DNA from: an uncultured candidatus Porisulfidus sp.
GTDB lineage: Bacteria > Pseudomonadota > Gammaproteobacteria > Poriferisulfidales > Oxydemutatoraceae
DNA: 64,000 bases
Direction: 5' to 3'
NCBI GenBank assembly: GCA_965215765.1
Contig: OZ244118.1
Location: 2,484,598 to 2,548,597 of the forward strand
The notes beneath the pieces are model-generated. The model ran no database searches, was not told the DNA's origin, and worked only from the letters and a program-made list of their open reading frames with translations. This document shows positions 22,301-26,659 of the stretch, piece by piece; the first letter of the stretch is position 1; the number at the start of each line of letters is the position of its first letter. Both the position numbers and the translations under genes were made by a program.

Positions 22301-25300
22301 TGTCTGCCCAGGATTGATCAAAAGACTCAGAACGCTGTGACCACTCCCGTCCAGAGAGCCGGAAAAAGATTCAATCGGAGGAAAACCCTTTCCGTCACGC
22401 CACTCGTGGCTTTGCTTCGCGTCTATGTCGTTTGCCACCCGATAATGCGCTACCGTGTCGTAACGTATTTCCTGCAACTGGCAAAGTGAGCCAACCTGCC
22501 AGGGGTCATCCTCGCTGCCAGAGCCCGCTGCTGTTATCACCGCTGCCCATGGACACGCGCCAACGTAGGTGAAAACCGGCACTGCCTCCGTTGGGCCTGC
22601 GCCCGCCTTGTTTCTGGCAAATACCCTGACTTCATACCTGGAACCACCTTCCAGGCCTGAAAATTCCAATACGGCCGAACTTGACCATTCCTGTTGTGTC
22701 TTATGCCGATCTTCTTTCAACAGGCCTTTTGAAAACAGTTGCACGTGATATACGAGATCCAGCGCAACTCCGCCTGCCGGCTCCCCGTACGTGCTGCTGC
22801 CCGGAGCGCGTCCGTAGCCGTCATCATCAGCCTCGGTAATGGTGACCCGTATAGTCGACAGCCCTGAAGCTGTCTGAGCTCTCACCGCCCCCGGAATTTT
22901 CATCAAATAAAAACTTCCCGACGCTGCATCTCCCGCAACGCCTCCTTTTACGCCGCGTATGGAATAATAGATTTCACTGCCGCTGGCGTGACGCTCACGT
23001 AATTCAGCCATTAATGAGCCGCCAAGCGCGAAGCGGGTTCCCTCGGTGTCTCGAATGATTCCGCCCACCTCAAGCTCATAGGAATTCACGACAACTCCTT
23101 GATGCTCCCACTGCAGCGTCAATCCACCTCTCAAATTCCAGTTTGCCCGGACTGCAAGTGGTGCAGCGGGAACATTCGTGAGCACCCGGAGCACGGGCAG
23201 CATGCGGGAGTGCCCGAAATGCCAAATTCGCGGATCCCAACCCAGATACACTCTGGATGCCCGGCAAAGATTGACGGGATCCATCGGACACTTCATTTGT
23301 TCCACAGTGCGCAAAGCACTACCCTGTACAGTGCCATCATTCCCGCCCACGAGGCTGTCCACGTCGCCCAGCTTGCTGGCATAGCTGCGAGCTATCGTGC
23401 CACTGTTGACCCCGACCAGTCTGCCCGGCAAATCAGTTCCTCCTACAGCACCAGTGCTATAGGCACTTCTGACCGTACCGCTGTTTTCGCCGACCAGACC
23501 GCCTGTCTGACTGCCTCCGGTCACTGTGCCTCGTGCGTAGCTATTACTGATGTTTCCTCTGTTTTCGCCGACCAGACCGCCGACTTGATCCTTCCCGCTC
23601 ACACGTACTTCCGGGCGTGCATGGCTATTCACAATCCTGGCGTTGCTTTCGTTCACACCCACCAGACCGCCTGTCTGACTGTCCCCGGTCACTGAACCTC
23701 GTGCGTAGCTATTACTGATGTTTCCTTTGTTTTCGCCGACCAGACCGCCGACTTGATCCTTCCCGCTCACACGTACTGCCGGGCGTGTATGGCTGTTCAC
23801 AATCCTGGCGTTGCTTTCGTTCACACCCACCAGACCGCCTGTCTGACTGTCCCCGGTCACTGCGCCTTGTGTGTAGCTGTCACTGATGCTTCCCTTGTTT
23901 TCGCCGACCAGACCGCCGACCTGATTCTTTCCACGTACTATCCCGAATGCTCGGCTGGTCACGATCCTGGCGTAGCCCCCGCTCACACCCACCAGACCAC
24001 CCACCTGACTATTTCCGGACACTGGAACTTGTGCATAACTGTCACTGATGCTTCCCCAGTTTTCGCCGACCAGACCCCCGACTTGATTCTTTCCACGTAC
24101 TTTCCCGAATGCTCGGCTGGTCACGATCCTGGCGTTGCCCTCGCCCACACCCACCAGACCACCTATTTGACTGTCTCCGGACACTGAACCTTGTGCGTAG
24201 CTGTCGCTGATGCTTCCCTTGTTTTCGCCGACCAGACCGCCGACCTTGTTCTTTCCAATCGCATTTGATCCAAACTCTGTATAGCTATTCACGATCTTGG
24301 CGTTGCTCTCGCTCACACCCACCAAGCCCCCAATCCCGGGGGCTGCTCCGACAACCTTGTTCTTCGTGTGGCTGCCACTGATGGTGCCGCCAAGGTGCCA
24401 ACCCACCAGACCACCCACGTACGCGTAGCCCCATATAGAGCTGATCCCGGTCACATCTCCATTCGCATGGCTGGAAGTGACTGAACCTATGTTTTTGCCC
24501 ACCAGACCACCGACTTGATTGCCTCCTGTTACTGCCCCAGACGCATGACTGCTTGCAATCGTGCCACCGTCATTCTGACCCACCAGACCGCCGGCAACCC
24601 ATGTGCCTCTAGAATTCTTCCCAACCCTTACCGCCGACGCGCTGTTGCGGATGACACCGCCCTGATTCAGGCCAACCAGCCCACCGATGGTTTTGTCCCC
24701 GTCAACCTTGCCATCAACCTCGCTGTCCTCAATCGTCCCCCGATCGTTCAGCCCAACCAGAGAACCGACATTCGCTCCGCCGTTCGTCGAAAAATTCACC
24801 AGCTTCACGCGCTTCAGCAAGCCACCCTGCAACTCGCCAAACAACCCTGTGTTCTCGAATTCTCCGGCTGTTGCACTGACCTTCAAATTGGAAATTTTGT
24901 AACCGTTGCCATCATAAGTGCCAGAAAAGTCCTTGATCGGTGCAAAATCGTCTTTCCAGCCATGCGTCATCGTCGTTGCGTCTATATCTTTGATCTGGAT
25001 GTAGTGCGACTCGGGCGATGTTTCCATGTCGCGCAAATGGCACAGGTTTTCTACTTGGTAGGGATCACTTTCAGTTCCGGAACCTGCCATGGCCTGCGAA
25101 CTTGCAGTACACGCGAGCTCGGGATCCATATAGGGAAATTGGCTGTTGTTGTAATAGGTGTCTCCGTAATTGAGAATGTTGAAGGCTCTTTCGTCCGCAT
25201 AAATCCCTCCCATCCCGTAATAGTATGAAGTGCACGTCTGGCTCTCAACGGGCGGCAGGGCATTATAAACCCCTATTATCAAGCCGGTTTCTTTATAAAA

Positions 25301-26659: not shown

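Follow-up and report, generated by a model that had tools for sequence, protein, structure and literature searches.

Six tandem genes, here called paralogs A to F, lie on the minus strand of a 64,000-nucleotide (nt) stretch of contig OZ244118.1, the whole of which is referred to as the window. Each encodes a giant protein in which an N-terminal protease domain (the head) is followed by a long repetitive stalk. The heads of the copies differ far more than the remainder of the proteins, and we think it rather likely that this pattern is due to diversifying selection on the protease head, with the scaffold subject to gene conversion and purifying selection. Selection on the surface around the active-site cleft would keep the heads different by purging conversion tracts, and gene conversion together with purifying selection would hold the scaffold similar. 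The outcome would be a repertoire of predicted active proteases differing in extended-subsite preference, in sensitivity to inhibitors of the host or of competitors, or in recognisability. Selection could be exerted through substrate range, through inhibitors of the host, or through recognition by the host or by phage.

A sharply bounded block in six giant genes

The complete copies encode 3392–3571 amino acids (aa): B (5223..15401, minus strand as for all six; 3392 aa), C (16310..26659; 3449 aa), D (28490..39142; 3550 aa) and E (41843..52558; 3571 aa). The outer two are truncated by the window ends. Paralog A (1..3583), delimited from its open frame and the alignment, is represented by its N-terminal 1194 aa, its C-terminus lying past the left end, and F (54411..>64000) has 3195 aa in the window with its first ~370 residues past the right end. 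No stop or frameshift interrupts any of the six genes.

In the MAFFT protein alignment and the codon alignment derived from it, to which column numbers refer throughout, one sharply bounded hyper-divergent block occupies columns 235–497. It corresponds to residues 235–484 of C (25208..25957), 235–477 of A (2153..2881), 235–472 of B (13986..14699), 235–478 of D (37709..38440) and 235–470 of E (51149..51856), all on the minus strand, and its C-terminal half is present in F (63654..>63998, minus strand; the remainder is outside the window). Mean pairwise nucleotide identity is 0.78 in the block, with amino-acid identities of 0.58–0.71 and indels in 16% of the columns, while 110 of the 263 columns (~40% of sites) are invariant. 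The N-terminal 234 codons (columns 1–234) show a nucleotide identity of 0.93, and the part downstream of the block a mean of 0.91–0.92 with a pair range of 0.89–0.93. When dN/dS, the ratio of non-synonymous (dN) to synonymous (dS) divergence, was computed in sliding windows along the codon alignment, as the sequence-only reading of this DNA had proposed, the jump in dN was found to be bounded sharply at the block: at its 3′ edge dN falls from ~0.35 to ~0.035 in a single 15-codon step at column ~497.

That reading had also placed the divergence between the paralogs in the protease domain, and this is borne out by the identities given above. Its coordinates for the block lie within about 100 nt of the measured equivalents, although it let the block reach residue ~520 and the measured end is at residue ~484. 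Its description of the remaining ~9 kb as more than 90–95% identical was too generous in view of the downstream values, and two further divergent zones were found there. The second most divergent zone of the gene after the block, columns 761–1250 (~22900–24370 in C), is the first GLUG module, where nucleotide identity is 0.85, 52% of the columns are gapped and the repeat number varies between the copies from 16 to 22 GGLVG cores; in sliding windows at columns 751–825, dN exceeds dS. The other zone covers columns 1851–2000 with a nucleotide identity of 0.82–0.86. Furthermore, the stalk, which had been called near-identical, turned out to be a recombination mosaic and is not uniformly conserved.

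Identity of the variable head and its relatives

In the alignment to lysyl endopeptidase (LysC), the variable block begins at the predicted junction of propeptide and mature protein and ends just before the conserved C-terminal segment GMGGIY..ERAFN. It is therefore read as the mature catalytic domain, which sequence and model comparisons assign to a divergent S1 protease (chymotrypsin fold) of lysyl-endopeptidase type. The predicted catalytic triad in C consists of His308 (25736..25738, in the motif YILTxFH), Asp354 (25598..25600, DWAIVRL) and Ser449 (25313..25315, GASGS), all codons being on the minus strand. These three residues do not vary among 12 sequences with identities as low as 37%, and match His57, Asp113 and Ser194 of LysC. 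Six cysteines, Cys242, 278, 287, 427, 432 and 476 in C numbering, are retained in all window copies. Unlike the mature domain, the signal peptide and the propeptide are conserved. The propeptide-like region of C (residues 41–234; 25958..26539, minus strand) may be weakly similar to a lysyl endopeptidase propeptide (9omd_I), with an E-value of 0.13 for C alone and 0.022 for the family profile, and this match is co-linear with that of the protease.

Single sequences gave little. Neither C by itself nor a profile built from 12 heads retrieved a protease from the PDB sequences, and in Pfam and NCBIfam scans of the whole proteins and of the N-terminal parts the head had no match above cut-off. Trypsin_2 of Pfam was matched by E alone among the window copies, at 26.4 bits (E 1.3e-5) under a cut-off of 27.6 bits, and by two of the 12 heads at E<=1. 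As no single-sequence match exceeded the cut-off, the family assignment needed a profile of the wider family (A4), which matched Lysobacter LysC (4nsv) at 7.9e-15 and Achromobacter protease I (1arb) at 5.4e-14 among PDB entries. An AlphaFold2 (AF2) model built from a 20-sequence alignment has a mean predicted local distance difference test score (pLDDT) of 73, with 70–92 across most of the domain; an earlier candidate model from a shallow alignment of 10 sequences, with a pLDDT of 36, was discarded. All top matches of the model in a Foldseek search against the PDB belong to the PA clan: 1arb and 4nsv (TM(target) 0.62–0.63), V8, Esp, DegP/S and TEV. The invariant triad, the profile match at ~1e-14 and these structural matches uphold the S1 protease domain that had been proposed from the letters alone.

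This is a very rare family, with only four to eight close relatives among 5.8 billion proteins, and two homologue searches returned fragments of the same protein family and nothing else. HMMER over 1.84 billion representatives added ~20 more distant proteins with the same propeptide and protease unit, in which the same core is conserved; some of them carry the unit joined to a different C-terminal domain (Big_9, PPC, Calx-beta), and others have no such fusion. Close relatives occur in a single genome among 185,579 species representatives, OZ243039.1, a metagenome-assembled genome (MAG) of 1.9 Mb assigned to Candidatus Oxydemutatoraceae (Gammaproteobacteria). It carries at least six copies (~10-kb genes) at four loci (L003–L006), three of them tandem in L004. 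A further related locus (L002) comes from the metagenome ERZ25071281. No pair of known heads is more than 83% identical. Several of the copies in OZ243039.1 show apparent frame breaks. The copy at L006:10001-11611 is without the CxxxC pair and ~20 residues before the catalytic Ser and keeps the triad; it may be a degenerating or a remodelled head.

The residue that gives LysC its specificity for Lys, Asp225 in the S1 pocket, is replaced in these proteins. Its equivalent in C is G485 of the GMGGIY motif. Both E and L003 have Ala there and P0001 has Glu, while clade 2 shows Asn or Lys and the wider family Lys. Since the equivalent is not Asp, the heads are not predicted to be Lys-specific. A derivation of P1 specificity from the propeptide junction (RR/PR in B–E, LG in A) and acidic residues in the hottest loop was tried and left unused as too speculative.

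Selection, recombination and rival explanations

Pairwise rates were estimated by the Nei-Gojobori method (NG86). In the protease domain dN is 0.258 and dS 0.312, giving a ratio (omega) of 0.83, compared with 0.050, 0.141 and 0.35 in the propeptide and 0.052, 0.157 and 0.33 in the distal stalk. Thus dN of the domain is ~5 times that of the flanks and omega is raised 2.5-fold. The ratio of non-synonymous to synonymous (N:S) differences is higher in the block than in the flanks in all ten pairs (odds ratio 1.6–2.9), with p<0.05 in seven of them.

Site models were fitted with our own codon-model likelihood program, which is of the Goldman-Yang type with F3x4 frequencies and searches 15 topologies. 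For the domain, M2a was preferred to M1a with twice the log-likelihood difference (2dlnL) at 87, and the comparisons of M8 with M7/M8a also gave 87. Under M2a about a third of the sites have omega ~0 (a share of 32–39% under M1a and M2a), half have omega 1, and 17% have omega ~8; sites with omega well above 1 are a minority of about 12–17%. The likelihood-ratio test (LRT) statistic was 76 and 111 under other codon-frequency models, 53 and 38 when all columns flanking a gap were dropped to a distance of 3 or 6 codons, and 38 when F was included and the C-terminal half analysed (six taxa). In comparison, 24 data sets simulated under the fitted M1a gave a maximum 2dlnL of 10.4, and 13 control segments (the propeptide, the post-protease segment and eleven stalk segments) had one-ratio (M0) omega values of 0.40–0.87 and 2dlnL of 0–28. 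A robust site class with omega>1 that stands above the controls was thus found in the domain, with five sequences and in-house code.

Twenty sites have a probability of omega>1 above 0.9: 248, 251, 253, 276, 285, 286, 324, 363, 367, 405, 434 and nine of those in 468–478. The latter form the hottest loop, residues 468–478 of C around Cys476 (25226..25258, minus strand), which follows the catalytic Ser and in which nine of the eleven positions are selected. We take this loop to be the 217–225 loop of chymotrypsin numbering, which forms a wall of the S1 pocket and of S3/S4. A second hot segment, 248–253, comes after Cys242 in the N-terminal part of the domain, and selected sites are concentrated in these two places. 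In the alignment Cys476 and Cys242 fall on Cys216 and Cys6 of LysC, respectively, and in Achromobacter protease I these two cysteines are joined by a disulfide. By homology, the N-terminal segment is probably tethered to the post-Ser loop in the same way, and the two hottest segments would then be neighbours in space. Length variation is found directly before the catalytic Asp (0–10 extra residues), presumably the position of the "99-loop", and 20–40 residues before the Ser.

The same contrast is seen in the relatives. Four clade-2 paralogs of OZ243039.1 have omega values of 0.94–2.97 at the same loops before and after the Ser (columns 400–480), with conserved N-terminal halves of the protease. 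Between the window copies and L003, dN is 0.318 in the head and 0.105–0.119 in the flanks, and between the window copies and L002 it is 0.324 and 0.054–0.085, respectively.

Recombination was detected by the PHI test (300 permutations) in the N-terminal 234 codons and in the stalk, where none of the 300 permutations was as low, and was not significant inside the protease domain (p=0.13). The best tree topology changes from segment to segment, and the nearest partner of each copy shifts along the gene, with tracts of 98.7–99.7% nucleotide identity between C and D, D and E, and B and C. Near-identical tracts lie at columns 1251–1400, 1601–1700, 2601–2700 and 3301–3400 and resemble recent gene conversion in the stalk. 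Head dN within the window (0.26) almost equals that against another genome (0.32), while flank dN is half of the between-genome value; therefore the scaffold evolves in concert and the heads are excluded from this. Such exclusion is expected if homogenising conversion tracts are selected against, or if divergence itself blocks conversion. One could thus argue that the heads are merely older, that conversion homogenises the propeptide and the stalk and halts at the protease block, and that the selective regime is the same everywhere. The recombination confined to the flanks, the mosaic of partners, tracts and topologies, the near-equality of head dN within and between genomes, and the higher NG86 dS of the domain (0.31 as against 0.10–0.16 in the flanks overall) all agree with this argument, which we nevertheless regard as rather unlikely on several grounds. 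Because dS estimates can be distorted where amino acids differ, divergence was also counted at third positions of fourfold codons with both first two bases matching. It is 0.145 in the domain and 0.108, 0.080 and 0.104 in the flanks, that is, 1.3–1.8 times higher, so that age or missing homogenisation accounts for a 1.3–1.8-fold effect alone, as against the ~5-fold excess of dN. In the youngest pair, A and B, dS of the domain (0.081) is not above that of the upstream flank (0.112), and dN (0.100 and 0.037) is still 2.7 times higher. The contrast in dN between head and flanks persists between genomes, beyond the reach of intragenomic conversion, and a site class with omega ~8 is not producible by age alone.

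Near-neutral drift of a head that is dispensable or decaying, for example if the proteins served only as adhesins, would likewise produce a domain-wide omega not different from 1 and numerous indels, and the L006 copy without the CxxxC pair fits such relaxed constraint. It is made improbable by the invariance of the triad, the Gly/Ser motifs and the six cysteines in the window copies, to 37% identity, by the invariant columns and the share of sites with omega ~0, by the rejection of M1a, and by the core kept in the wider family. Pseudogenisation, which the sequence-only reading had named as something that would overturn it, is excluded by the intact frames of all six copies. Misreading of non-homologous codons as non-synonymous substitutions, through misalignment, indels or segmental replacement, deserves attention since the hottest sites flank indels (columns 249–250, 282–286, 344–354, 415–430 and 474–478), dS is also raised in the hot loops, and the LRT drops to control level without two loops. 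This too has little probability in our view: the LRT stays at 53 and 38 after the removal of gap-adjacent columns, the selected sites 276, 324, 363 and 434 lie in ungapped, confidently aligned stretches, and the N:S excess occurs in every pair. Targeted hypermutation, either by a diversity-generating retroelement (DGR) or by cassette-type antigenic variation from silent copies, would suit the sharp bounds of the variability and a locus marked as recombinogenic by tandem leader cassettes (see below). It is very improbable, as neither a reverse transcriptase nor any open reading frame (ORF) outside the family was found in the window, as many indels spread over 250 codons are unlike the variable regions of DGRs, as each of the six copies has full length, a start and a signal peptide of its own and none is a silent cassette, and as the domain is without a recombination signal. 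Jointly, the four rival explanations hold rather less than half of the probability, and each is contradicted by at least one direct result.

Several points nevertheless weigh against diversifying selection on the head or narrow what can be claimed for it. Full head sequences in the window number five (A–E), F contributing its C-terminal half only, and the likelihood code is in-house and was checked by simulation alone. Two of the 24 null simulations came near 10. The domain as a whole has an M0 omega of 1.24 by maximum likelihood, which does not differ significantly from 1 (LRT 2.5, p=0.11), and its NG86 value is below 1. Of the claim of diversifying selection in the sequence-only reading, what stands is the site class with omega ~8, and what does not is an excess across the domain; the outcome that it had accepted as a refutation, a dN/dS of 1 or less across the domain, is borderline at 0.83 to 1.24. 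Seven of the 13 controls also reject M1a at 0.001 (2dlnL 11–28), so either recombination inflates the test there or the whole exposed protein diversifies mildly. With its two hypervariable loops removed, the domain gives an LRT of 22, the level of the controls. The selection signal of the protease domain is thus stronger than that of the controls but not of another kind. In the hottest loops, which lie next to indels, dS is raised to 0.43–0.58, and part of the change there may be segmental replacement or non-homologous alignment. Substrate-binding loops, to which the changes had been attributed from sequence alone, do hold nine of the 20 selected sites in the post-Ser loop, but over all loops assigned by DSSP there is no enrichment (12 of 110 versus 8 of 111, p=0.36), and the proximity of the selected sites to the cleft rests on the alignment to LysC, not on measured distances. 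Different protease specificities had been suggested as well. As the Asp225 equivalent, the determinant of P1 preference, sits in a conserved motif, a change of P1 specificity among the window copies is not indicated. Substrate specificity and evasion of recognition are not separable as readings from evidence at the sequence level. Finally, the similarity of the scaffold is partly owed to gene conversion and not to constraint alone.

The array, known systems and biological setting

Each gene is predicted from its sequence to encode a giant secreted or surface protein with a Sec-type signal peptide, a propeptide, the protease, a GLUG/fn3 part of ~3000 residues and a C-terminal tag. In C the signal peptide and propeptide are followed by the S1 protease, then by four modules and finally by the C-terminal LRLRAFLGGMVR tag. 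According to a motif scan, each of the four modules consists of a module head domain followed by GLUG repeats, then a YxGW..WxFG domain and a pair of fn3 domains. Pfam on the whole protein gives 13 GLUG stretches (PF07581, E 1.1e-70), fn3 near the C-terminus and a weak Peptidase_M26_N match. With 31–37 GGLVG cores per protein across the four modules, the proteins qualify as GLUG-repeat surface proteins. The window holds no ORFs other than the six paralogs and their leader fragments. An assembly artefact was considered as the origin of the array; the intact frames of all six genes and the differences between the copies along their whole length led to its rejection.

The tag, LRLRAFLGGMVR, comprises 12 residues after the modules. 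The C-terminus of C is encoded at 16310–16351, and the complete copies all terminate in ...KKLRL[RK][AV]FLGGM[IV]R, B, D, E and F doing so at the same position. An LRL[RK]xFL[GE]Gxxx-COOH end is also found on much shorter relatives that have in common with the window proteins the propeptide and protease only, P0052 (418 aa), P0090 (548 aa) and P0115 (1140 aa), and on P0008. This shared ending may be an undescribed C-terminal sorting signal.

Upstream of A, C, D and E, and not of B, there are leader arrays on the minus strand (3717–3959, 26794–27770, 39277–41126 and 52692–53691). Their unit of 351–380 bp is the gene's own leader plus its first ~70 codons, repeated in tandem. For example, the array upstream of C (26794..27770, minus strand) has three tandem ~351–380-bp copies, each with an open 81-aa ORF. 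Most units hold an open 80–81-aa ORF that encodes the signal peptide and ~40 residues and ends in ...ARVQPCWDIRE*. In L002 the counterpart occupies locus positions 3–1528 and comprises five ORFs of 102 aa that overlap at ATGA stop/start junctions. Possible roles of the leader arrays are a recombination substrate, an expression switch, or secreted mini-peptides. In addition, ~182-bp tandem repeats at 4526–5215 and 15967–16281, in the A–B and B–C spacers, adjoin the stop codons of B (5223) and C (16310).

Among known proteins, lysyl endopeptidase/Achromobacter protease I (S1; 1arb, 4nsv, 9omd) shares with the heads the chymotrypsin fold, the His-Asp-Ser order and the equivalents of Cys6 and Cys216. 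Its N-terminal propeptide may be weakly similar, and it provides the best sequence (E~1e-14 with the family profile) and structural matches. However, identity is ~14%, the catalytic His of the window heads lacks the following Cys, the Asp225 position is Gly/Ala, and the post-Ser loop has 9–16 residues instead of 5. The window heads are, moreover, fused to a ~3000-residue GLUG/fn3 stalk in six tandem paralogs. A similar design is known from the serine protease autotransporters (SPATEs, IgA1 protease and Hap; family S6, type Va secretion), whose chymotrypsin-fold protease sits at the N-terminus of a long, repetitive extracellular stalk and which occur as several paralogs per genome with varying substrate ranges. 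In contrast to the SPATEs, the window proteins have a GLUG/fn3 stalk, the 12-residue tag in place of a translocator, and a LysC-like head with a propeptide, and a Pfam scan of the whole window protein found no Peptidase_S6, pertactin or autotransporter beta-barrel. The spl operon of Staphylococcus aureus (SplA–F) likewise arranges as many as six S1 paralogs in tandem, with divergence in their substrate-binding loops, and SplB is among the fold matches; the Spl proteases are, in contrast, ~200-residue free enzymes without a stalk or a scaffold maintained by conversion.

Giant surface proteins with GLUG repeats, including the N-terminal region of the streptococcal M26 IgA1 metalloprotease, share with the window proteins the 13 GLUG stretches and the weak Peptidase_M26_N match; no metalloprotease domain was detected in the window proteins. 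The module head domain has thousands of relatives, while only a few metagenomic proteins combine a GLUG stalk with a LysC-like head. In its evolution, the array would most resemble the accelerated mature serine proteases of venoms and immunity with conserved pro-regions. Snake-venom and immune serine proteases form tandem families with a conserved signal peptide and propeptide, in which dN of the mature protease is about equal to or above dS in cleft loops. They are, however, eukaryotic, intron-containing and small secreted proteins, whereas the window family is bacterial and its enzyme makes up one end of a giant protein. Venoms, immune proteases and some pathogens offer well-known cases of positive selection on protease paralogs; to our knowledge, and in the literature searched, none has been reported for a giant surface protein family of the GLUG/fn3 type or for a symbiont of sponges. 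A literature search on the organism and on GLUG in sponge symbionts found nothing on these proteins.

The named member of Candidatus Oxydemutatoraceae is a symbiont of the sponge Stylissa (PMC11685487). As the sole genome with close relatives is a MAG of this family, the host is probably a sponge. Rare as the gene family is, it is present in at least six copies both in the window and in the related MAG. The window array alone amounts to more than 3% of a 1.9-Mb genome, and the family would take up several percent of the reduced genome of OZ243039.1.

The partition of one gene into homogenised and diversified blocks by selection and gene conversion is a clean example of its kind. If the heads differ in their range of substrates or inhibitors, proteolysis would be a contested interface between the sponge and a dominant symbiont, and the array would offer natural, scaffold-matched protease variants for studying how the loops of an S1 enzyme are retuned. 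More speculatively, the array may be a repertoire of predicted active, differently shaped LysC-like heads that are kept diverse by an arms race against the sponge host or against competitors, and among which leader cassettes switch. The heads would then escape different host inhibitors or receptors, or cleave different matrix or immune proteins of the host, and the leader cassettes, with their open 80–81-aa signal-peptide mini-ORFs upstream of four of the five copy starts present in the window, would act as recombination or expression switches. We consider this arms race doubtful, but if true, it would be a previously undescribed way in which a symbiont with a reduced genome (1.9 Mb in the related MAG) manages its interface with the host.

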